Source of the DNA: an archaeon
GTDB taxonomy: Archaea > SpSt-1190 > DYHY01
Length of the DNA stretch: 62,336 nt
NCBI GenBank assembly: GCA_037442745.1
Contig: JBBIPP010000002.1
Coordinates: 110,463-172,798 of the forward strand
Direction of reading: 5' to 3'
This document shows positions 5,667 to 31,502 of the stretch, piece after piece. The translations under genes were made by a program, and so were the position numbers. Position 1 is the first letter of the stretch, and every line of letters begins with the position of its first letter. The notes beneath the pieces are model-generated. The model worked only from the letters and a program-made list of their open reading frames with translations, did not search any database and was not told the DNA's origin.

Positions 5667-5744
5667 GGGGGAATATGCTAGCTTGGTCCAGGCTTCGAGG
5701 TTTGGGGCCTCGCGACCCGAGTTCAAATCTCGGTTCCCCCACCA
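5667..5744 (+). tRNA. tRNA-Pro (anticodon UGG) with genomically encoded CCA
   Basis: Hand-folded. Acceptor GGGGGAA pairs with TTCCCCC. T-arm is CCGAG-TTCAAAT-CTCGG. Anticodon stem CGAGG/CCTCG carries loop TTTGGGG (U33, UGG, G37). The D-arm is a little irregular (4 bp with one mismatch, 11-nt loop carrying the GG). Confidence 0.6.
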
Positions 5745-7987: not shown

Positions 7988-8157
7988 CCCCTGGTAACTC
8001 AATCTGGCAGAGTGGTCGACTGTAGAGCCGTCCTATCCTCCAAAAAAGGGAGAGAGGGCAGCTTGGTTAGGAGCCATTCTCACAAAGAAGGTGGTTTTGG
8101 GCCCAAGGCGGCGCAGCCATCGACTTGTTGCAGGTTCAAATCCTGCCCAGGGGACCA
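7988..8157 (+). tRNA. tRNA-Tyr (anticodon GUA) with a ~93-nt intron at the canonical 37/38 position. CCA is encoded.
   Basis: Acceptor CCCCTGG pairs with CCAGGGG (the C1-G72 pair typical of archaeal tRNA-Tyr). D-stem is ACTC/GAGT. Anticodon stem GTCGA (8015-8019) carries loop CTGTAGA; the partner TCGAC lies at 8120-8124. T-arm is GCAGG-TTCAAAT-CCTGC. The intron is roughly 8027-8119. Confidence 0.75.
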
Positions 8158-10733: not shown

Positions 10734-10809
10734 GTCCCGGTGGTGTAGTGGTCTAGCATATGAGCCTGTCACGCTTATGACTCGGGTTCGAATCCCGACC
10801 GGGACGCCA
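10734..10809 (+). tRNA. tRNA-Asp (anticodon GUC) with encoded CCA
   Basis: Acceptor GTCCCGG pairs with CCGGGAC. T-arm is TCGGG-TTCGAAT-CCCGA. Anticodon stem TGAGC/GCTTA (one G-U pair) carries loop CTGTCAC. The D-stem has two G-U pairs. Confidence 0.7.
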
Positions 10810-10884: not shown

Positions 10885-10996
10885 GGGCCGGTAGCTCAGC
10901 ATGGTAGAGCATCTGGCTTTTATTTTCAGGGGGGAGAAATCTCCCCTGGAGGAAGAAACCAGGTGGTCGTGGGTCCAAATCCCACCCGGCCCACCA
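10885..10996 (+). tRNA. tRNA-Lys (anticodon UUU) with a 35-nt intron at 37/38 (10923-10957). CCA is encoded.
   Basis: Acceptor GGGCCGG pairs with CCGGCCC. D-arm is GCTC...GAGC. Anticodon stem TCTGG/CCAGG flanks CTTTTA-[intron]-A. T-arm is GTGGG-TCCAAAT-CCCAC, with C at position 55 where U is normally found. Confidence 0.7.
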
Positions 10997-18784: not shown

Positions 18785-19258
18785 GTGGGAATTACTCTGA
18801 AAATATCCTCCTCTTCAGGCTCTCCCGGAAAATCCGTCAAAATGGGGATGGACCATTTCAAGTTCATCAACCTTTTTGAGTCAATGACGAACGCGCATGT
18901 CAAGGACTGCGTAATTCTCCCAGACAGGCTTGTCTTCATTATTAACGAGGGGGAAATCGGCCTTGCAATAGGAAAAGGCGGGGCGAACGTAAAGAAGGTT
19001 GAGACAGCGCTCCAAGGGAAGAAAGTCGACCTGATTGAGTATTCAAAGGACCCGATCCAGTACCTGAAGAACATCCTCTATCCGATGAAAATAAAGAGCG
19101 CCTACAATTCGGAAAAGTCCGACGGGAAGAAGGTCTTGAATATTGACCTAGATTCCCATGACAAGAAGAAGCTCCTTTCAAACGGGAAGAAGAGGCTGAC
19201 TGAGGCCAAGGGATATTTCCTCAGGCACCATAAGGTGGACGACATTGAGGTTGTTTAG
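18785..19258 (+). CDS. nusA: Archaeal NusA-like termination factor (two KH domains). The start may be the internal ATG at 18842.
   Basis: A KH motif is present (LAIGKGGANVKKVETAL). Size and position are as in archaeal RNAP operons. Confidence 0.8.
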   Translation: MGITLKISSSSGSPGKSVKMGMDHFKFINLFESMTNAHVKDCVILPDRLVFIINEGEIGLAIGKGGANVKKVETALQGKKVDLIEYSKDPIQYLKNILYPMKIKSAYNSEKSDGKKVLNIDLDSHDKKKLLSNGKKRLTEAKGYFLRHHKVDDIEVV

Positions 19259-19329: not shown

Positions 19330-20385
19330 ATGGAAAAGTTTACATTTGTAGATTTAATTAATCGAGTTTTCAAAGAATCTAAAACACCTTTATCACCAAA
19401 AGAAATTTGGGAAAAAGCAATTCAGTTAGATTTAGTTTCTCGATTAAATTCAAAATGAAAAACTCCTTGGGAGGCCATCAATTCATACATTTATGACGAT
19501 GTTTCAAAAAGCGTAACTCCGCATTTCAAGAAATTCGGAACAAGACCAACAAGATTTCATTTTGCTAATTTTGCAGGAAACGTGCTTGACTTACCAGAAA
19601 AAAATTTCACCGGGAAGTTCAATGAAAGAGATTCACATACCTTGTGAATTTTGCTGGTCGCAATAACAAATTCGGTGTGCTAATAAAACAATACATCACG
19701 AAAATTCCAGAAAGACAAGAATCTGGAAGTCGTCTTGGTTACATTCCGATCTCGTTTGGTGTATTTTCCTTTTCAAGAAGATGAATACACATCTTCCTTT
19801 ATAGACTTACAAAAAGAAGTATCAATTTCTTTAGTAAGATTTTTTTCTTTTGAAATGAAAATAAATCTAAACTTTAGCAGTATAAGAGAATCATATTTTC
19901 AGGCAGTTTCAAATTCAAGCTGGGCAAACGAGGGCTATTTAGTTGCGTTGAACATAAATAAAGAATCCGACTTTCTTCAAGAACCTCACAGGTTGGCGGA
20001 TGCATTTGGAATTGGTATAATAGAATTAGACGCAGAGAATGTTGCTGAAAGTAAGATATTAATTCGTGCAAAAGAGAACAAAGAATTAGATTGGAATACG
20101 TTAAATCGCCTAGCAGAAAAAAATGGCGATTTTGGTGTCTTTCTCAAAGATATAGTTAAGGACTTGAGTGTCTGTTGTTACTGGAAGATACGATTCAATT
20201 CTTTCTATCGAAGAGTTATTTGCTTGGATAAAAGAGAAGAAAATAACGAAAGAACTTCTCTAACTTTTCTCAAAAACAAACACATATTCGTGCGCGAGAA
20301 GCAGGAAATTATACTTTATGCTCTGGGGATACCAAAAGCCTGTCGCTCGGCAGTTGTGTTGTTCTTTGATTATTATCTCCTTTAG
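19330..20385 (+). pseudogene. Degraded gene with an N-terminal HARE-HTH-like winged-helix domain and a C-terminal nuclease-like region. It is interrupted by at least 3 in-frame stops (TGA at 19456, TGA at 19644, TAA at 19678-19683).
   Basis: The frame-1 reading gives MEKFTFVDLINRVFKESKTPLSPKEIWEKAIQLDLVSRLNSK*KTPWEAINSYIYDDVSKSVTPHFKKFGTRPTRFHFANF. The same frame continues into the 216-aa ORF 19735..20385. Confidence 0.4.
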
Positions 20386-21090
20386 GGAAAAACCAGCCTC
20401 CAGAAACTTTTCCATTGTCCTGAATCCCAAAGGAACCACTTTTCCCCGTTTACGGGTGTCTCCCATCATTACTGCGCAGAACTTGCTTTGTTTGAGGACA
20501 GAGTAAAATTCTTTTGCAATCATCCCTATTTCTTTTATGAATTCTTCGACTGAAAGAGAGGACAAATCACTTTCATCCTCATCACTATACGAGATGATGT
20601 TCGCATAATGAGGATGGGCACAGACAAAGTCAACGCTTTCCTTTCCGAAATAAGCTACGACTTTCTTGGCGTCCCCGATCTTTAGTACCGGATCGAACGA
20701 ATCCGGAAACTCAAAAGAGCTTCTTGCTTTCGAGAGTTTTATTGCATCTGAGCTTAGGTCAATTCCTATTCCTCTCCTGCCGAGAAGTTTCGCCTCTATT
20801 GCAGTTGTCCCGCTTCCAATGAACGGATCAAGAACAACATCTCCTTTTTTCGAATAGCGGAGTATGAGGTTTCTCGGAATTTCGGGCGCCCAATTCCCGC
20901 GATAATCTCCCTTGTGGGTTGCCCAACTGCCCCTCCTAGGAAAACTCCAATTGGTGGTTGCCTGCATCTTGAATTCATTCGGCTCAGTAGCTAAAGCACT
21001 TTTTTTCTTTTCAAAAGGGCTAGAAACCAATTTATTAGTTTTCAACAAAGGTTTCTCTTTAGATTGTACCAATTTTGTTCCTTCTGCCAT
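20260..21090 (-). CDS. Orphan SAM-dependent N6-adenine/N4-cytosine-type DNA methyltransferase with atypical motif order and an HPHY motif
   Basis: EIPRNLILRYSKKGDVVLDPFIGSGTTAIEAKLLGRRGIGIDL is the motif I / SAM-binding block of N6/N4 methyltransferases. Downstream, VDFVCAHPHY occupies the place of the (D/N/S)PPY catalytic motif. The ORF is intact. Confidence 0.65.
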   Translation of the reverse strand: MAEGTKLVQSKEKPLLKTNKLVSSPFEKKKSALATEPNEFKMQATTNWSFPRRGSWATHKGDYRGNWAPEIPRNLILRYSKKGDVVLDPFIGSGTTAIEAKLLGRRGIGIDLSSDAIKLSKARSSFEFPDSFDPVLKIGDAKKVVAYFGKESVDFVCAHPHYANIISYSDEDESDLSSLSVEEFIKEIGMIAKEFYSVLKQSKFCAVMMGDTRKRGKVVPLGFRTMEKFLEAGFSLKEIIIKEQHNCRATGFWYPQSIKYNFLLLAHEYVFVFEKS

Positions 21091-21186
21091 TTTAGAAGAT
21101 TTCTTTTTTTCTCATTTATACTTGGACACAGTCTTTCCGTTATTAATTTTAGAGAAATTTAAAAGGGGCCTTTTCACTCCGGAAAT

Positions 21187-22017
21187 GTGCCGACTGAGAA
21201 GTTCCAATTGCCAGTTTTCCTCAAATGGGCGGGAGGAAAGCGCCAGCTTCTGCCGGAACTAACGAAGAGGTTTCCCAAAAGTTTTTCAGGTTATGTAGAG
21301 CCTTTCTTGGGCGGGGGAACCGTTTTCTTTCAGGTGAAAAAAGACAGATCACCGAAAAAGGTGTTTCTTTCAGACATAAACGAGTATCTTGTAAATTGTT
21401 TCATCTAAGTAAGGGATTCTCCTGAAAAACTCTCAGATCTTTTGGAAGAACACCGGAAAAACCACTCGAAAGAGCATTATTACAAAGTAAGAGCACTTAA
21501 CGGTGGCCTAGACAAGGCAGAAAGCGCAGCAAGGTTGATTTACCTTAACAAAACCTGTTTCAACGGCCTTTATAGGGTTAATTCCCAAAACGAGTTCAAT
21601 GTCCCGTACGGAAAACACAAGCACCCGGCAATTCCATCTAGAGATTTGATTCTTTCCGCCAGTTATTTCCTCAAAGACGCGAAAATAAAGAAAATGTCTT
21701 TCGATAAGCTCGATTGGATTGCCAAGAATGGCGATTTTGTTTATTTTGACCCTCCTTATTATCCGATGTCAAAAACAGCCAATTTCACGGCATATTCGAC
21801 CGGAGGATTCGCGGAGGAGGATCAAATTAAACTATCTGAGATTTTCAAGAAACTTTCAGAAAGGGGCTGTTTTGTTATGCTCTCAAACAGCGACCATCCC
21901 AAAATAAAGGAAATTTATTCAGAATTCAAAATAGCTTCGGTTCTCGCTAGAAGGTCGATAAATTCCGTTTCCTCTGGTAGGGGCCCAGTAAAAGAACTGA
22001 TAATAACGAACTATTGA
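21187..22017 (+). pseudogene. Dam-like (D12-class) N6-adenine DNA methyltransferase interrupted by an in-frame TAA at 21406-21408
   Basis: The N-terminal part has LKWAGGKRQLLPELTKRFPKSFSGYVEPFLGGGTVFF (motif I). The C-terminal part has VYFDPPY (motif IV). Both parts are in frame 1 and are separated only by the TAA. Confidence 0.7.
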
Positions 22018-22538
22018 CTTTCTTCGGGAAGACCGAAATACTCAAGAGGTATTTCGTTGAAGAAATAACCACACCCAACAGATTTTACATATTCCAAAGT
22101 GTCCTTATATTCCGGCTTTTGGAACCAGTTATTCAGAACATATACATATTTTACCTGCGTTTTCAAGGAAGAGAATAGTTTTTTGTATTGTTTCAGCTTA
22201 AAGTCGCATGTTTGGAGTTTTTCATCAACTGATCTAGGGCTGTGCTGGAACTTCATCTCAACAATATGCACGACATTTCTCCTTAATATGAAAACTGCCT
22301 CGTCCGGAACAAGTTTTTTCGAGAGTATTTTTTTGTAGTCAATTCCTTTAGGAGCAAGGAATCCTTTGTAAAGGACGTGCTTTCAATAAAGTTCCGCAAC
22401 AACTTCTTTGTTGAAAAATATCTTGTTTCCAGAAACAGAATAACCTTTCAGTTTCCTGAATAAATCAGCTATTTTTACCCTATCCTCGAAAAGCAAGCCA
22501 ACCACTGTATTTGCGCCACCAAAACCACCCTTTTTCAT
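22011..22538 (-). pseudogene. PD-(D/E)XK restriction-endonuclease-like gene interrupted by an in-frame TGA at 22383-22385
   Basis: The minus-strand reading gives MKKGGFGGANTVVG...VAELY*KHVLYKGFLAPKGIDYKKILSKKLVPDEAVFILRRNVVHIVEMKFQH.... The PD...(19)...E-M-K arrangement fits a PD-(D/E)XK core. It is convergent with the Dam pseudogene. Confidence 0.5.
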
Positions 22539-22679: not shown

Positions 22680-23849
22680 ATGTTCCAAAAGCCCAAAAAT
22701 TCCCCCCCTTGCCCTAGGAAGAAAATCGAGTCACTGAACCTGTCAGCGAAAAGGGCGTCTGAGGGCTTCTCGCTTCTTTTCCTCGGAAAAACAATCCTTC
22801 TCTCAATATTCTTCGGATATTTCCTCCTCTACCACTCGCTCGGCTTTCCGGCAGGCCTCTCAATTCTCCTGATTTCATTCCCTCTGTTCTCGACAATTCT
22901 TTCCAAATACAGGGAATACCTGAAAATTAGGGAGATTTCCGGATTTTCCCGCCCGGACGAATTCCACACACTTTTCGTTGAAATCGAGCGCCAGAGACTT
23001 TTTTCAAAAATATCGCTTTTCCTTTCGGGCGGGCTCTCCCTAGCGTTCGGGCACATACTTTTTCCGCAATTCATCTCTGGATATCTCGACCTCTTCTCAG
23101 TCGAGGCTTCCGCATCCGCCTTCCTCGTTTTCTCCCTAGTTTTCCTCGGAACATTCATTGTCCCGGCATTCGCAAGATATTCCCTAGCAACGAAGACCAA
23201 AGGGACTGGCAGGCACGAGGAACTAGAAGAGACCCTCGGCCTTGTCGAACTGAAAACGCGGGCGCTCTCCCTTTTCCCGGCAATTTATTTCCTGATTTTC
23301 CTCCTCTTCCTCCTTGGAGGGGACAAAAAAATTCTTGTCTGGTTAATTGCAGTCTCATCACTCTTAATGGCAGGGGCAATAATTTCATTTTACCTGGAGT
23401 CAGAGCTTCTAATAAGAAAAAGACTGGCAAAGGAAGGGGTTCTTCCGGCAAAAGACGAAAGAATTGTGGCTACCTTCTTCGGAATAACCAGTTTGGGAAC
23501 TTATCCGAATTTCCACCTGCCGTTCTCAACTGAGCGGGAGAATTCCCTTCTCCTTACAAACAGGAGGATAGTTTTCCTCAAAATCCCCGGGAACAAAAAG
23601 ACTGCTCCTGAGATTGCGCGGGTTGGGAAGGAAATTGAGAGAAAGGGATTATCCGAACTCTTGAAACTGGGGAAAAATTCCCTTGAATATTTCGAGATTT
23701 CCCGGGCAGAACTCAAGGGAAAAGGGCTTGAGCTAGACATTGAGGCAAAGGACGGGCGGAAATACCGCCACCTTCTCCTAGATAGGGAGGATTCCGGGCG
23801 CCTCAGCGCCCACCTGAAAACGCAGATTTCCCACAAATTCACTGCCTGA
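22680..23849 (+). CDS. Polytopic membrane protein with a C-terminal bacterial-PH-like (YdbS/YdbT-type) domain
   Basis: Six or more TM helices are followed by LLLTNRRIVFLKIPGNKKT...LEYFEISRAELKGKGLELDIEAKDGRKYRHLLLD, a bPH-like pattern. GC content matches the host. Confidence 0.45.
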   Translation: MFQKPKNSPPCPRKKIESLNLSAKRASEGFSLLFLGKTILLSIFFGYFLLYHSLGFPAGLSILLISFPLFSTILSKYREYLKIREISGFSRPDEFHTLFVEIERQRLFSKISLFLSGGLSLAFGHILFPQFISGYLDLFSVEASASAFLVFSLVFLGTFIVPAFARYSLATKTKGTGRHEELEETLGLVELKTRALSLFPAIYFLIFLLFLLGGDKKILVWLIAVSSLLMAGAIISFYLESELLIRKRLAKEGVLPAKDERIVATFFGITSLGTYPNFHLPFSTERENSLLLTNRRIVFLKIPGNKKTAPEIARVGKEIERKGLSELLKLGKNSLEYFEISRAELKGKGLELDIEAKDGRKYRHLLLDREDSGRLSAHLKTQISHKFTA

Positions 23850-24355: not shown

Positions 24356-24958
24356 ATGGAAGCACCAAAACTTTTCGGGAAATACGATTACTCTGTCGAA
24401 GTCAGGGAGCCGGGTCTCTCTGAATACATTAACCTTAGGCCGGTGATTGTCCCGCACTCGGGCGGAAAGCATGTCAAGAAGCGGTTCTGGAAGAACAAAA
24501 TTAACATTGTCGAGAGGCTTGTGAACAAGATTTCAGTCACAGGCCACTCGTCGCTCTCAAGAAAGCACATATTCACTTCAGCTCGGAACACCGGGAAGAA
24601 GCAAAAGGCAATTGCGACAGTCGAAGCAGCATTCGCCCAGATTTACGCGAAATCAGGGAAAAACCCGGTCGAAGTTCTTGTCAGGGCAATCGAGAACGCT
24701 GCTCCGAAAGGGGAGACAACTGCGGTAATGATGGGCGGAACAAGAAGGCCCGTTGCAGTCGATGTCAGCCCGCAGAGAAGGGTTGATTTGGCTCTTGCAA
24801 TAATAACAAAAGGGTGCTTCAACAAATCTAGGGGATCTTCAAAGGACCTCACAGCAGTATTGGTAGATGAACTGATATCTGCGGCTGAGAACGACCCAAA
24901 GAGCTTTGCAGTTGAAAAGAAAGTCAACACCGAAAGGCAAGCCGAGTCGGCCAAATAG
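24356..24958 (+). CDS. rps7: 30S ribosomal protein S7
   Basis: MEAPKLFGKYDYSVEVREPGLSEYINL... gives a 200-aa product. The start lies 5 bp after the rps12 stop. The track's upstream ATG at 24197 overlaps rps12 and was rejected. Confidence 0.85.
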   Translation: MEAPKLFGKYDYSVEVREPGLSEYINLRPVIVPHSGGKHVKKRFWKNKINIVERLVNKISVTGHSSLSRKHIFTSARNTGKKQKAIATVEAAFAQIYAKSGKNPVEVLVRAIENAAPKGETTAVMMGGTRRPVAVDVSPQRRVDLALAIITKGCFNKSRGSSKDLTAVLVDELISAAENDPKSFAVEKKVNTERQAESAK

Positions 24959-24971
24959 GCAGACGAAGTCT

Positions 24972-25036
24972 CCGGCTCCTGCCGGAGGCCGAATCAGTCA
25001 AATAAACCTCCTTTCCCTCCTGATAATCTTTTTTAT
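24972..25036 (+). terminator. Hairpin (CTCCGGC-TCCT-GCCGGAG) followed by a T-run (cttttttat) downstream of rps7
   Basis: Read directly from the sequence. Archaeal termination is usually oligo-T driven. Confidence 0.3.
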
Positions 25037-25402
25037 CCTAGCCCCTGCCATGTTCCGAATGGCATTCGGGAAGCTTCTTACAACAATTGCATCCAAAATA
25101 AGCTCTCAATCCGGGAAATACTGAAACCGGCGAAAGCGCTTGAGAAAACCGGGATGAGAATGCGCTATTTCAACATCTGAGATCCTAACAAGTTCGATTT
25201 CAACACGCCAATTCACCGGAGAACCTCCCAGAAAAAGGAGATTTAGGACGCTTTCAATTCCCTGAAGAAATACATTGAAAAGTTCAGATAATTCCCCTAC
25301 TCAAAAAAGGACTGCCGGAAAAAAGTTGACTGGACAATTATGTGCATTTTTCTCCAAAGAGCATATAACCAAAAATGTTTTACTATTGCAGAGAGGGGAA
25401 GA

Positions 25403-26671
25403 ATGCGAATGTCTTCTAGCAGAAAAGGGGAAATAAGGATATTTTACTCGTTTTCCGGGGAGAAAAACGAGGGGTTCCTTCCAAAGGAGCTTCTTCATCC
25501 AGACAAGGACGCGTGCTTCCAAGGCAATTACACTGGAAAGGGGATAGGGAAGCTTGAAGATGTTTTCCTCCCAATTGAGCTCCAAATATACAGGGAGGAT
25601 TCCGAAGAGACTGATTTTTCCGGGGAAGTTTCCTTAGACTTCCTAAATCCATTGGGCTCGGAAGAGCTCTTCCTCCGGCTCTCCGAAGGACGGACAATCC
25701 CTGAGAAAAACCTCAGGGAATATTTCGAGACAAGGCTCAGGAGGGCAGTCAAGAGGAATGTGTCGAAGACTACCAACTTTTTCTTGGACATTCGATATGG
25801 GAACTTGGAAACGGTTTCAATTACGACAAATTTCTCAGGAGTCTCTCAAGGACAAATCCCAAATCTTGTGACAAGCCTTCTTGACGAATATACTTTAATT
25901 GTCGGGGACGTTTCAGCTTCCCTCGGAGTTGCCCCGAAAAGCAGGACAATTCACATTGTCTTCAAGAAGACCGACTATTTCGGCAAGACTTCAGTTGAGC
26001 CGGCCGACCTTGAGACCGAGAGCGCGATCGGGGAGACGAGGAAACTGCCTCCGGGGAATTCAGGAGACAAAAAATGGAAAGGGTCGAACCAGATATTCCC
26101 CCACCTTCCATTCGAGGCAATTGCGCTCTCTGGCCTTTCGGAAGAAATTGACGAGACATATCCGAGGGATGAGACTTTCTATATAGGACCTGTCCTTGAG
26201 GCGGAATATTCCCTTTCGGGGACGAATTCCCCGAGAGTTTCTGTTTCAGACACGTCCGGCTGGATGGACGTTCCAGTGAAGAAAATATCACTGGTCGGAC
26301 GGCCTTCCGCCGGAGGCTATTCAATTGACGCCAGTTTCGAGCTTTCCGCGAATCTTGACAAACATTGTGTCCAAAGACTCCGGAACAGGATGGACGATTG
26401 CGGAATAAAGTATTCCCAAGCCGGGCGGGAATTCTCCATTGTCGGATATTCCGCAAATTCAAAGGAATCTGCAAAGGAAGAGCTTTTCAGGGCAGCGGTT
26501 GACATGAAGACCGCGCTATCAGAGCTTTTCCCCCGAGAAGAGGGGCGTTTCTGGTTCGTTCCTGTCGGAATCCCCCTCGACAGGGGAAATCTCGGAAAGG
26601 AGATTGAAAGTGTCCTCTCCGGAAGGGCGGACTATGCCTGGAATATGAAAAGGAGCGCGAGAGGTAAATGA
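25403..26671 (+). CDS. Protein with no family recognisable from sequence (423 aa), first gene of a coupled pair inserted in the str operon
   Basis: The start is chosen at MRMSSS (25403), which has GAGGGG 7 nt upstream and a TATA-like CATATAAC about 35 bp upstream. No known motifs were recognised. Confidence 0.5.
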   Translation: MRMSSSRKGEIRIFYSFSGEKNEGFLPKELLHPDKDACFQGNYTGKGIGKLEDVFLPIELQIYREDSEETDFSGEVSLDFLNPLGSEELFLRLSEGRTIPEKNLREYFETRLRRAVKRNVSKTTNFFLDIRYGNLETVSITTNFSGVSQGQIPNLVTSLLDEYTLIVGDVSASLGVAPKSRTIHIVFKKTDYFGKTSVEPADLETESAIGETRKLPPGNSGDKKWKGSNQIFPHLPFEAIALSGLSEEIDETYPRDETFYIGPVLEAEYSLSGTNSPRVSVSDTSGWMDVPVKKISLVGRPSAGGYSIDASFELSANLDKHCVQRLRNRMDDCGIKYSQAGREFSIVGYSANSKESAKEELFRAAVDMKTALSELFPREEGRFWFVPVGIPLDRGNLGKEIESVLSGRADYAWNMKRSARGK

Positions 26672-27768
26672 CCGCAAGAGTGAATGTATTTTTCCCGGAG
26701 AGATTGGAGGAAATCGCGAGAACTGCGCTGGAGACCGGAAAAAAGCAGGAATATCTCGCGCCCGAAGGGCGGGTTCTAGAGAGCTTCAAATTGGACGTCT
26801 CCTGCAAAGTCCCGGATGGAAAAGGAAAAGACGCTGTATATACGGGAAAAGTCGGGATCGCCTTCCCAGACACATTCGACCCCGACAAGGTTTCGGGATA
26901 TTATCTTCAGATGGCAATGGAAGCAGTCCCCCAGATTCTCGGGAGAGATCTGAATAAATCGAAGGAGGGTTTCGAATCCTGCGAGGACGGCTCTTTCCTT
27001 TATTCCAAATACTGCTTCGCTTCAGACAATGAAGCCGAGTTTGCGGAATTCGCAAGGAAGCTTGTCAGGACATATTCCATCATTTGCGAGGAAATTCTCA
27101 AGGACGCCGGGTTTGACGGAAAAATTAACCTGAATTTTTCAAAGAAAAAGGATGCTTCTTCCGGAACCACCTCTCTTCCTGCGCCCAAATCCGAAAGAAA
27201 GAATTCAAAAGTCCTCCACCCTCCCCGCATTGTCCCCTTTGCAATCTACAGCTCGTCTGAAATTGAGAGGAGCCTTTCTTCAGGGGAACCGATGCACTTT
27301 TTCCTCGGAACTCCCACCCTCTACGAGATTGACCCTGTCAGGAACTGCGCGAAAGAGGTTTCCTTCGGCTGGAAGCTCCTCGATTCGAAAGTCAACGCAA
27401 GCCTCTCAATTTTCCCCGGAAAATGCGGAATGTATTCGGAGGAAATTTCTCTCTCGTTTCCTGACGGAGATTGCCCGGAAATTTTCAGGAACGAATACGA
27501 GGAGCTCGGCTATTCGGCCGTTGCAAATGGTAACCGGTTAATTCTGAAAAGAGATTCCCTCTTTCCGGTTGATGCGAAAGGGGTTGCCAAAGGAATTGCC
27601 GACTCTGCACTCAAAATAGCCTCAACAGTTTCCAATTTCTCAGTTCCCCAGGAAAGGGAAGGGCTTTATCTCGCCCTCCCGATTGCCGACTATCAGCCGG
27701 AGAAGCACATTCTCAGGGGGGCTGTTGCAGATTTCGTGCAAAAAGGAAAGGCATACGGTCTTGAATAG
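26668..27768 (+). CDS. Protein with no family recognisable from sequence (366 aa), second gene of the coupled pair
   Basis: ATGA overlap with the upstream gene. No recognisable motifs, TM segments or signal peptide. Confidence 0.5.
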   Translation: MTARVNVFFPERLEEIARTALETGKKQEYLAPEGRVLESFKLDVSCKVPDGKGKDAVYTGKVGIAFPDTFDPDKVSGYYLQMAMEAVPQILGRDLNKSKEGFESCEDGSFLYSKYCFASDNEAEFAEFARKLVRTYSIICEEILKDAGFDGKINLNFSKKKDASSGTTSLPAPKSERKNSKVLHPPRIVPFAIYSSSEIERSLSSGEPMHFFLGTPTLYEIDPVRNCAKEVSFGWKLLDSKVNASLSIFPGKCGMYSEEISLSFPDGDCPEIFRNEYEELGYSAVANGNRLILKRDSLFPVDAKGVAKGIADSALKIASTVSNFSVPQEREGLYLALPIADYQPEKHILRGAVADFVQKGKAYGLE

Positions 27769-27854
27769 GCTGGGCCGAAAGCCCCTTGCTCGGAGAAAAA
27801 ATTAGTGCCGAAAAACCTTAAAAAGACCAATTCTGGGCGATTTCCTGAAAAATC

Positions 27855-30038
27855 ATGGCAACGCAGGAAGAAATCAAACAGAAAACGCTTGAATTGATGG
27901 CCAAGCCAACATTCATCAGAAACATCGGGATTGTGGCTCATGTTGACCACGGAAAGACTACTTGCACTGACAACCTCCTTGCGGGAGCGGGGATAATTTC
28001 GGACGAGCTCGCAGGCGACCAGACATGGACCGACTATGACGAGATTGAACAGCAAAGGGGAATTACAATAAAGTCCGCGAACGTCTCAATGGTCCAGGAA
28101 TATGGCAAGGATTTCTATCTGATAAACCTGATTGACACTCCCGGTCATGTCGATTTCGGAGGAGAGGTCACAAGGGCTCTTCGCGCAGTGGATGGCGCAG
28201 TCGTTATGTGCGATGCAGTGGAGGGCGTAATGCCCCAGACGGAAGCCGTCCTCAGGCAGGCCCTGAAAGAGCGGGCAAAGCCAGTCCTCTTCATTAACAA
28301 GGTAGACAGGTATGTGAAGGAGCTGAAGCTCACGCCAGAGATGATGCAAAAACAGTTCGTGAAAATAATCCAGAACGTCAACGAAATAATCTACAAGTTC
28401 GCGGCCGACGAATACAAGACAAAGTGGAGGGTATCAATTGAGGACGGCTCCGTCTCATTCGGATCGGCATACCAGAAATGGGCAATAAACGTCCCGATAA
28501 TGAAGGAATCAGGAATTGGGTTCGCCCAGATAATAAAGGCTGTCGAAGACGGGAACTCGAAGGAACTCAACAAAAAAATCCCCCTAACAAGGACACTTCT
28601 CCAGATGGTAATAAAGCACCTCCCAGACCCGGTCACAGCCCAGGCATACAGGATTCCTAGGATTTGGCATGGGGATATGGAGAGCCCCGTTGCAAAAGGC
28701 CTCCTTGCCTGCGACCCGAACGCCCAAACAATAGGAGTTGTGACAAAAGTCATAAGCGATCCGCACGCGGGAACAGTTGCGGCAGTAAGGCTCTACTCAG
28801 GGACAATCCGGGCAGGGCAGACAGTCGAACTGATTGGCGAAAAGCAGAGGGAAGTTGTCCAGCAAGTCGGAATTTACAAAGGGCCTTTCAGGCTCCTAGT
28901 CGACGCAATCCCTTGCGGAAACCTCGTTGCCCTGATCGGAATGAAGAGCGCGCGGGCAGGGGAGACAATTGCGACAGAGAAAATAGAGCCCTTTGAGGCA
29001 ATCAAGCACGCGTTCGACCCGGTCGTTACAAAGGCAATTGAGCCGAAAAGCCCCCAGGATCTTCCAAAGTTAATTGAGGCGCTGAAATCAATTGCAAGGG
29101 AGGACACAACCCTCAAGGTCACAATCGACCAGGAGACCGGGGAATATCTCTGGAGCGGTCTTGGAGAGCTCCACCTCGATGTCTGGCAGACAAGGCTTGA
29201 ACGTGACTGGAAAGTCCAGGTCAACGTTTCTCAGCCAATAGTTGTCTACAGGGAGACTGTTGCGGGAATAGGGCCTGAAGCCGAAGGCAAGTCGCCGAAC
29301 AAGCACAACAAATTCTACATGATTGTAGAGCCTCTTCCTGAGAAAATCTTCAAGGCATACGAGGAAGGGGATGTTTATGACACGCGAGTCAAGAGCAAAG
29401 ACCTTCCGCTTGTAAACAAGCTAATTGAGCTCGGAATGGAAAAGGATGTTGCGAAAAAGGTCCTTGAAATCTACAAGGGCAACTTCTTTATTGAATTGAC
29501 CAGGGGACAGGTGCATCTGCCCGAGGTAATTGACACTGTTCTCGAAGGGTGGAGGAATGTAATTGACCAGGGGCCCCTTGCAAAGGAAAAGTGCCAAGGA
29601 CTGGTTGTGAAACTGATGGACGCAACTCTCCACGAGGACGGAATCCACAGGGGACCTGCCCAGGTAATCCCGGCAGTTCGGGACGGAATAAGGGAATCTA
29701 TGGCGGGAGCGCAACCAAGGCTTCTTGAACCAATACAGAAGGTAAGGATCGACATACCCCACGAGGCAATGGGGTCGGCTTCGGGCCTTGTGCAGTCAAG
29801 GAGAGGGAAAATAATAGAAATAATTGATGAGGGAGGAAGCGCGGTGATAATGGCGGACGTCCCGGTCTCCGGAATGTTCGGATTCACGACAGACCTGAGG
29901 AGCGCAACCCAGGGAAGGGGATTTTGGAGCCTTGTTGATTCTAGGTTCGAGATGCTCCCCAAGGGCTTGACAGAGTCGACAGTAATGGAGATTCGGAAGA
30001 GAAAGGGCCTCAAGACCGAAGAAGAGAAGAAGGAATAA
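27855..30038 (+). CDS. fusA: Elongation factor 2 (aEF-2)
   Basis: A 727-aa ORF at the canonical fusA position of the archaeal str operon (after rps7, before tuf). Confidence 0.9.
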   Translation: MATQEEIKQKTLELMAKPTFIRNIGIVAHVDHGKTTCTDNLLAGAGIISDELAGDQTWTDYDEIEQQRGITIKSANVSMVQEYGKDFYLINLIDTPGHVDFGGEVTRALRAVDGAVVMCDAVEGVMPQTEAVLRQALKERAKPVLFINKVDRYVKELKLTPEMMQKQFVKIIQNVNEIIYKFAADEYKTKWRVSIEDGSVSFGSAYQKWAINVPIMKESGIGFAQIIKAVEDGNSKELNKKIPLTRTLLQMVIKHLPDPVTAQAYRIPRIWHGDMESPVAKGLLACDPNAQTIGVVTKVISDPHAGTVAAVRLYSGTIRAGQTVELIGEKQREVVQQVGIYKGPFRLLVDAIPCGNLVALIGMKSARAGETIATEKIEPFEAIKHAFDPVVTKAIEPKSPQDLPKLIEALKSIAREDTTLKVTIDQETGEYLWSGLGELHLDVWQTRLERDWKVQVNVSQPIVVYRETVAGIGPEAEGKSPNKHNKFYMIVEPLPEKIFKAYEEGDVYDTRVKSKDLPLVNKLIELGMEKDVAKKVLEIYKGNFFIELTRGQVHLPEVIDTVLEGWRNVIDQGPLAKEKCQGLVVKLMDATLHEDGIHRGPAQVIPAVRDGIRESMAGAQPRLLEPIQKVRIDIPHEAMGSASGLVQSRRGKIIEIIDEGGSAVIMADVPVSGMFGFTTDLRSATQGRGFWSLVDSRFEMLPKGLTESTVMEIRKRKGLKTEEEKKE

Positions 30039-30734: not shown

Positions 30735-31502
30735 CTATTTCTCGGATGCAGGGGCATTCCCCTTTCCCGCTTTGCCCCAATTTCCCCACGGTGGCCGTAT
30801 TTTCGCAATCAGGCCATTCTTCCCCTCAATGAAAATGTCAATTATGAGGAGGAGGACTAGGAACGAGAAGACCCAAAGGACAGGGAAACTCCAGATCCCA
30901 TAGTCTTTGATAACACTCCCGGCAAGTGTGTCGAGGACAGTTTTCGGAATTGCGCCAATTGCAGTGAAAACAATGAATTCGAAAAAGTCCCCATTCGTGA
31001 ACGAAGCAACGAAAACCGTTACCGTGTCGCCAGGAACCATTGGTGCCGCCCGTGTAAGCAGGTATGCCTTTCTCCGGGAGCGAGCTTTCCTGAAAAAATC
31101 CCTCACATACCCGATTTCCGCCTGGACAATCCCGGAATACCCGAAGAACTTGCTCGCCTTTCTTGCGAGGAAGAAAAGTATTGCGGTGCCAAGAAGGCTT
31201 CCGAAATAATTGAGGAAAACTGCGTTCCAAAAACCGAACAGGTAGCCCGAGGCGACTGTTACAACGCTTCCGGGAAGGAAAAAAACAACTGCCTGGACAA
31301 TGTAGAGGAGGACGACTATTACCGGGCCCAAAAGACCGCTCTCATCAACAACGTTTATCATTTTCTGGCGGTTGAGGAAGAGTTCATAGAGGAGGAAGAA
31401 GAGGCCGAAAAACAGAGCGCTTCCGAGCACTCCGAATATAATCTTTTTTTTGTCCACGCAGATTTCCAGAAATACTCTTTTTAAGACTCGTGTAGGGCTC
31501 AC
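30735..31502 (-). CDS. DedA/TVP38 (SNARE-associated) family membrane protein, antisense to the str operon
   Basis: [43 protein letters not shown] is the DedA signature region. Multiple TM helices are present. Confidence 0.7.

Follow-up and report, generated by a model that had tools for sequence, protein, structure and literature searches.

The window analysed here is a 62,336-nt stretch of archaeal DNA (GenBank contig JBBIPP010000002.1) in which two genes, termed A and B, lie between rps7 and the gene for elongation factor aEF-2; coordinates are window positions on the plus strand unless marked. The gene order, from the open reading frame (ORF) table and Pfam, is rps12, rps7 (ending at 24958), A, B, aEF-2 (27855-30038, with the full Pfam EF-G domain architecture), a VTT/DedA gene on the minus strand, aEF-1alpha and rps10. 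The ORF table and the flanks confirm two same-strand frames between rps7 and aEF-2, at 25340..26671 and 26668..27768, as an earlier reading of the letters alone (the sequence-only reading) had proposed. The same arrangement, rps12-rps7-(aminotransferase)-A-B-aEF2-VTT(-)-aEF1a-rps10, is found in three close relatives, L001 and L002 (JGI contigs) and L003 (Logan contig), where the orthologues are 77-79% identical in amino acid sequence for A and 75-76% for B; recurrence at this locus had been named beforehand as a test, and the pair does recur. A scan of aEF-2 across GTDB species representatives returned two close genomes only: L004 (labelled "MAG: archaeon"), with an EF-2 88% identical to that of the window, and L005/L029 (labelled "Candidatus Micrarchaeum sp. 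DR5_63_9"; 83-84%). After these, EF-2 identity drops to about 46-55%, in matches labelled Woesearchaeota, Methanomassiliicoccales and others. Judged by EF-2, the window lineage thus belongs to an isolated, sparsely sampled, DPANN-like (Micrarchaeota-like) clade. Intron-containing tRNA genes in the window confirm the archaeal lineage.

In the alignment with the relatives, the start of gene A that is kept is the second ATG, at 25409, which is TTG in L001 and L003; given this conservation, A (25409..26671) most likely encodes 420 aa. From the previously noted start at 25403 the product has 422 aa, not the 423 reported, whereas the size given for B (26668..27768, 366 aa) stands. The ATG of B overlaps the stop of A as ATGA, read directly at 26668-26671 and present likewise in L001 and L003; the A/B-like pair of L004 keeps the overlap in a different form (ATGGCTGA). 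The GC content is 0.49 in both genes, similar to the bulk of the window and in keeping with the host-like composition ascribed to them. Kyte-Doolittle maxima over 19 residues are 1.11 for A and 0.68 for B, which gives no transmembrane segment in either protein, again as read before. Both window proteins are acidic, with isoelectric points of about 5.5 (4.6-5.5 across the clade).

Upstream of A, a TATA-like element, CATATAAC (25362..25369), is followed by a Shine-Dalgarno-like GAGGGG (25393..25398), 10 nt ahead of the start at 25409. The motif AAAGAG(C/T)ATATA(A/G)CC upstream of A is conserved in L001 and L003, as is the Shine-Dalgarno region GGAGGGGAAGAA; L004 has AAAGGTATTTAACC in its 50-nt spacer, together with GGAGG/GGGAGGGG. 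The promoter of their own that had been proposed for A and B from CATATAAC and GAGGGG is thus plausible as a separate promoter-like element. Another TATA-like element, CCTTAAAAAG (27816..27825), lies about 30 nt upstream of the aEF-2 ATG (27855). Here, TTAAAAA is invariant and at equal distance from the ATG in five of five genomes (window, L001, L003, L004 and L029); the rest of the B/aEF-2 spacer is unconserved in L004 and L029. This element is likely the promoter of aEF-2 itself, and the TTAAAAA box suggests a near-leaderless aEF-2 transcript. A scan for sigma-70 promoters and intrinsic terminators, models not applicable to archaea, stayed at background level and was set aside.

No family in Pfam or NCBIfam matches A or B (hmmscan, E<=1), and none in Pfam matches the L004 homologues or the L005 protein at that threshold. 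PADLOC and PHROGs, covering known anti-phage defence and viral families, likewise return 0 families for the pair at E<=1, and profile searches with A and B find no match among PDB sequences. The earlier statement that the proteins carry no recognisable motif and form an undescribed family therefore agrees with all five sources, and no well-known housekeeping family was found in the profile hidden Markov model (HMM) searches. A word-index search of 5.8 billion clusters returned three proteins per query. An exhaustive phmmer search of 1.84 billion representatives, with A and B concatenated as the query, returned only A/B orthologues, P0008 and one spurious ORF, P0009, a translated tandem repeat rejected as a false positive; P0008 is the L004 homologue of A, 35-36% identical over the C half of A. 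Further relatives were added neither by profile search nor by a metagenome pattern scan or two viral scans (IMG/VR), and no source searched gives a name for A or B. By these comparisons A and B belong to no described family and are confined to about four or five related uncultured genomes; "categorically new" means here only that known families and systems could not be matched.

A and B are real genes under purifying selection. Both reading frames are long and intact in the window, L001/L002, L003 and L004, and the ratio of nonsynonymous to synonymous substitution rates (dN/dS, or omega; Nei-Gojobori) is 0.18-0.23 for A and 0.16-0.23 for B at dS 0.6-0.9; with frames kept in three to four other genomes at such ratios, the two are not chance ORFs. 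The folded domains of both proteins lie at an omega of 0.14-0.24. The linker of A (about residues 189-230) is hypervariable, 38% identical and carrying indels, and the C-terminal tail of A (FWFVPVGIPLD...) is its most constrained part, with an omega of 0.05-0.10. At the protein level the pair changes about ten times faster than the translation genes beside it: dN is 0.13-0.15 for A/B versus 0.00-0.02 in those genes (0.01-0.02 for EF-2, S7 and EF-1alpha), and dS is 0.6-0.9 versus 0.2-0.6. The codon adaptation index (CAI) of A (0.58) and B (0.63) is that of the bulk of genes; EF-2 and EF-1alpha, both members of the reference set, reach 0.70 and 0.74. Compared with L004, identity of the window or L001 proteins falls from 88% (EF-2), 84% (S7) and 71% (aminotransferase) to 35% for A, in the C half only, and 24% for B. 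Compared with L029, it is 83% for EF-2, 73% for S7, 59% for the aminotransferase and 48% for VTT, and the L029 ORF at the B position has no significant similarity to B.

The A protein consists of an N domain (about 1-188), the hypervariable linker (about 189-230), a C domain (about 231-373) and the constrained C-terminal tail. The B protein consists of an N-type domain (about 1-158), a basic linker (about 159-187) and a C domain (about 188-366). A direct similarity between A and B on window-clade alignments was sought with BLASTP and hhalign, and both were negative. A connection emerges through L004, whose B-like protein, B_L004 (4223/4250-5941, 563-572 aa), carries two tandem N-type domains and a C domain. 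With hhalign, the N domain of the L004 A-homologue (A_L004) matches B_L004 domain 2 at 92% probability (E 8e-7), and the N domain of window B matches the same domain at 94% (E 2e-7). An HMM made solely from the B proteins of the window clade recovers B_L004 (E 7e-10, leave-one-out); HMMs of the B family from which A was left out recover the N domain of A_L004 at E 4e-6, or at 3e-17 with the domain profile. By way of the L004 relative, A and B are thus ancient paralogues that share an N-type domain of about 160-190 aa. With its three domains, B_L004 also shows the duplication of domains to be an ongoing process in this family. Extra paralogues are absent from the 62-kb window and from the 30 fetched loci. 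Two candidate sites were discarded: the Walker-A-like GKGIGK in A is not GxxxxGK[ST], and the N-terminal half of A has no similarity to its L004 counterpart; for a metal site, the cysteines are conserved within the window clade only.

The slot itself varies across the clade. L004 has S7 and the aminotransferase, then an A-homologue of 438 aa and a B-like protein of 563/572 aa, and finally EF-2; in L029, S7 and the aminotransferase are followed by a membrane protein of 628 aa encoded on the other strand, an ORF of 419 aa and EF-2. The membrane protein at the gene A position (L005 2665-4584; L029 4429-6315, minus strand) is polytopic, 628-639 aa long and without a Pfam family. The L005/L029 ORF was considered as a B orthologue, since it looks alike by eye and aligns; leave-one-out HMMs miss it, and it is kept as a positional counterpart only. 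In shuffle tests the L029 ORF reaches p of about 0.002 with the N-type profile and of about 0.001 with the A_C profile, and the match of the L005/L029 protein in the profile search arises by construction. In every clade genome, B or the ORF in its position ends 59-87 nt upstream of aEF-2 on the same strand. Among 24 EF-2 loci of other archaea, S7 is directly adjacent in about ten; in L023, genes for an ABC-type binding protein, a TrmB-like regulator and a Nudix hydrolase come between S7 and EF-2, and in many DPANN contigs S7 is not found upstream of EF-2. No counterpart of A or B stands at the EF-2 loci of these other archaea, which carry unrelated inserts or none. The S7/EF-2 cluster is not inviolable in this part of the tree, and the interval between rps7 and aEF-2 is a variable slot of a small, poorly sampled DPANN lineage.

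Structure prediction with AlphaFold2 (AF2) used three-sequence alignments without the divergent L004 and L029 proteins, which makes the models poorer than possible; mean predicted local distance difference test (pLDDT) scores are 50 for A (about 70-80 in residues 60-180) and 44 for B. In the AF2 secondary structure, all four domains follow a beta3-alpha-beta2-alpha pattern. Among the Foldseek matches of the A model, none of which reaches E<=1e-3, bc1 core proteins and MoaC rank best; in the PDB the list is headed by bc1 core 2, core 1 and IDE. These scores are below significance and were obtained with a low-confidence model. For the B model, the pointers are to ARPC2 and type III secretion chaperones. 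The models thus suggest generic two-layer alpha/beta sandwiches only. Foldseek on predicted models had been put forward as a check by the sequence-only reading; once run, it yielded only matches of this generic kind. The alignment of five B sequences has no invariant His, Asp, Cys or Lys; its invariant columns are mostly Gly, Pro and hydrophobic residues.

The secretion-chaperone-like fold (SicP, SycN, CesT; ARPC2) resembles the predicted domains in its small, acidic, two-layer form and its beta3-alpha-beta2-alpha order. Its members form homo- or heterodimers that bind other proteins without catalysis, and the class I chaperones of type III secretion and ARPC2 (p34, a tandem duplication of that fold) are one fold group in SCOP. 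A and B differ from them in having no sequence similarity: neither a Pfam or NCBIfam family at E<=1 nor a PDB sequence match supports membership of a chaperone or ARPC family, and the resemblance may be one of common sandwich topology only. Type III secretion and Arp2/3 are not known from these archaea.

From these observations a reading of the pair can be assembled, to which, taken whole, we give roughly an even chance: A and B would be a clade-restricted, fast-diverging pair of soluble paralogues with two alpha/beta domains each, forming a transcription unit of their own in a variable slot. The unit would be small, comprising the TATA-like box, the Shine-Dalgarno sequence, A and the ATGA-coupled B, and the start/stop overlap may lead to roughly equimolar synthesis of the two proteins. 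The paralogues would then come together as a hetero-complex with pseudo-symmetry, made up of four alpha/beta domains. The extreme divergence, the hypervariability of the linkers and the fact that no catalytic-type residues are conserved fit binding or scaffolding better than catalysis. Because the B family has no invariant His, Asp, Cys or Lys and diverges so strongly, a binding, scaffold or chaperone-type module would be likelier than an enzyme, and the complex is probably soluble and non-enzymatic. Its partner may be a fast-changing one, related for example to a virus or to the host of a symbiotic archaeon, and its place beside aEF-2 would be historical rather than functional.

Several points weigh against this reading. 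Translational coupling does not prove that A and B associate, and the absence of catalytic residues in three to five sequences is weak evidence against enzymatic activity. The N domain of window-clade A has no detectable similarity to the N-type domain, which leaves the paralogy to run through L004 alone. The breadth of the family is uncertain, the L005/L029 protein being only marginally similar. Finally, the B/aEF-2 spacer contains no oligo-T terminator after B, so that read-through from B into aEF-2, and hence co-expression, is possible.

DPANN genomes carry many hypothetical proteins, and orphan pairs are common in them. The lineage-specific hypothetical protein families of DPANN archaea are one of the close comparisons for A and B. 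The likeness lies in the narrow uncultured clade, the lack of annotation, the rapid divergence and a small genome whose conserved operons are interrupted by clade-specific genes. Unlike those families, A and B are translationally coupled paralogues lodged between two highly conserved genes, which makes the contrast in rate unusually measurable: the A/B family spans 100% to about 25% identity while EF-2 changes by only 12%. The pair is a clean orphan family, real, selected and internally duplicated, which neither sequence nor the available structure methods can classify, and it offers a well-defined target that is small, soluble and co-translated, with clear domain boundaries. A role in host or virus interactions, if true, would enlarge what is known of function in Micrarchaeota-like symbionts, which is very little; with neither such a role nor contact to EF-2 or the ribosome, the two genes are just another hypothetical pair specific to a lineage.

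A functional tie to translation, which the sequence-only reading had drawn from the position of the genes, would make A and B accessory factors, for example clade-specific partners, chaperones or regulators, that serve aEF-2 or the ribosome and are co-expressed with aEF-2 through the str cluster. The constant same-strand placement 59-87 nt upstream of aEF-2 in every clade genome fits this, as do the possible read-through and the 419-aa ORF of L029, which fills the B position though sequence similarity is almost lost. Against it stand the separate, conserved TATA-like box of aEF-2 and the pace at which A and B change, about tenfold that of EF-2, S7 and EF-1alpha, with a higher dS and an average CAI. 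The slot also hosts the aminotransferase and, in L005/L029, a membrane protein on the other strand; the minus-strand VTT gene is placed just as stably between EF-2 and EF-1alpha, so positional stability reflects inherited synteny. Other archaea have no counterpart or unrelated inserts, and nothing in the two acidic proteins hints at RNA binding. The positional argument is left unsupported by the box of aEF-2, the variable slot, the fast divergence and the average CAI, and the tie itself is judged unlikely. If EF-2 or ribosome contact were true, the pair would be a rare, recently invented translation accessory.

It is similarly improbable that A and B are a degenerate, inactive M16-type heterodimeric clamshell, pitrilysin- or bc1 core-like, in which each gene encodes two homologous alpha+beta domains. 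The M16B peptidases and bc1 core 1/2 subunits (LuxS/MPP-like fold) are partner subunits of about 400 aa with two homologous alpha+beta domains each, one or both of them often catalytically dead. The architecture of A and B is analogous, with about 420 and 366 aa, two domains each and adjacent paralogous genes, and in the Foldseek search of the PDB the A model came nearest, if weakly, to bc1 core 2, core 1 and IDE. In contrast, hmmscan at E<=1 finds neither Peptidase_M16 (PF00675) nor Peptidase_M16_C (PF05193) in A, B, the L004 homologues or the L005 protein. The HxxEH zinc-binding motif is in neither A nor B, which an inactive, core-protein-like member would still be compatible with, and the B model points to ARPC2 and type III secretion chaperones instead.

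A reading in which a clade-specific, four-domain A/B hetero-complex (ARPC2/ARPC4-like or an inactive M16-like clamshell) is expressed with aEF-2 by read-through and acts physically on aEF-2 or the ribosome is very unlikely. If it were true, that complex would be a lineage-invented translation accessory of a reduced symbiotic archaeon, evolving fast by adapting translation to a host-dependent lifestyle.

The interval between rps7 and A bears on a third proposal. By its alignments, this interval is a degraded aminotransferase gene and not plain intergenic DNA. The relic of a class I/II aminotransferase (25059..25291) joins codons of about 1-62 to the last 16 or so codons. Three lesions mark it: near codon 16 the frame is shifted by 1 nt, a TGA stands in frame at 25178-25180, and some 970 bp of the interior are deleted. 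With the L001 aminotransferase as the tblastn query, aa 18-62 match at 25109-25243 (78% identity, including the stop) and aa 365-400 at 25187-25285, and the relic DNA aligns to both ends of the L001 gene. An intact aminotransferase of 401-411 aa (Pfam PF00155) stands between rps7 and the A/B slot in L001, L003, L004 and L029, and no other copy is found within the 62-kb window. Aminotransferase, A and B might form a small metabolic operon, in line with their common strand and the short spacers (50-116 nt) in L001, L003 and L004. This is contradicted by the window, where the aminotransferase is destroyed and the A/B pair beside it is intact; the dN/dS of window A/B (0.16-0.23) is not above the 0.17-0.18 found between two relatives that keep the enzyme. 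L029 retains the aminotransferase without a recognisable A, the enzyme is far slower (71% versus 24-35% identity), and a TATA-like box separates it from A. A shared metabolic operon is therefore highly improbable.

Hardly tenable at all is the idea that the two ORFs are non-functional, as chance frames or decaying remnants: the lack of homologues outside a tiny clade and the very fast divergence fit it, but it is contradicted by a dN/dS of about 0.2 at dS 0.6-0.9, with many synonymous changes and the protein kept, as well as by long intact frames in four genomes, by domain cores more constrained than the linkers, and by the adjacent true pseudogene, which shows what local decay looks like (frameshift, stop codon, deletion).

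Directly after the rps7 stop lies a GC-rich hairpin (24968..24989) with a 9-bp stem and a 4-nt loop. The minimum free energy for 24955-25045 is -24.9 kcal/mol (z = -2.9), and one of 200 shuffles folds equally well. It is followed by a T6 run (CTTTTTTATCC, 25029..25034), conserved in the alignment with L001. This run could be an archaeal oligo-T terminator of rps7, a former TATA-like box of the aminotransferase, whose relic begins about 25 nt downstream, or both; of the terminator proposed earlier, the hairpin and the T6 run are real, whereas the T-run may equally well have been the TATA box. In L001 (8535-8680, compared with window 24958-25058), a duplicated segment follows the rps7 stop, with GC-rich hairpins of its own that differ in sequence, and a stem-loop 3' of rps7 seems to be maintained while its sequence changes.

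Further features lie in the surroundings. The VTT/DedA-family membrane gene (30735-31502, minus strand) occupies the aEF-2/aEF-1alpha junction, an unusual content for a fusA-tuf junction, in the same place in five of five clade genomes. Between NusA and rps12, a 389-aa multi-pass membrane protein (22680-23849) without a significant Pfam match is conserved in place in L001 and L003 (82-84% identity, dN/dS 0.16-0.20); it is another clade-specific gene inside a conserved transcription/translation cluster. Between NusA (18785-19258) and this membrane gene lies a low-GC island (19735-22271, GC 0.41-0.43), absent from L001 and L003. On its minus strand it has an N6/N4 DNA methylase (20260-21090); a methyltransferase of the D12 class (Dam-like), probably disrupted, is spread over two ORFs (21187-21408 and 21442-22017), and two further ORFs are without assignment (19735-20385 and 22011-22271); by its gene content the island looks like a restriction-modification remnant. 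Elsewhere in the window, Rfam tRNA matches at 7988-8154 (167 nt) and 10885-10993 (109 nt) exceed a mature tRNA in length, presumably because they contain introns, and receive no ARAGORN call; a tRNA-Pro (5667-5744) is called by ARAGORN only, and a tRNA-Asp at 10734 by both tools.

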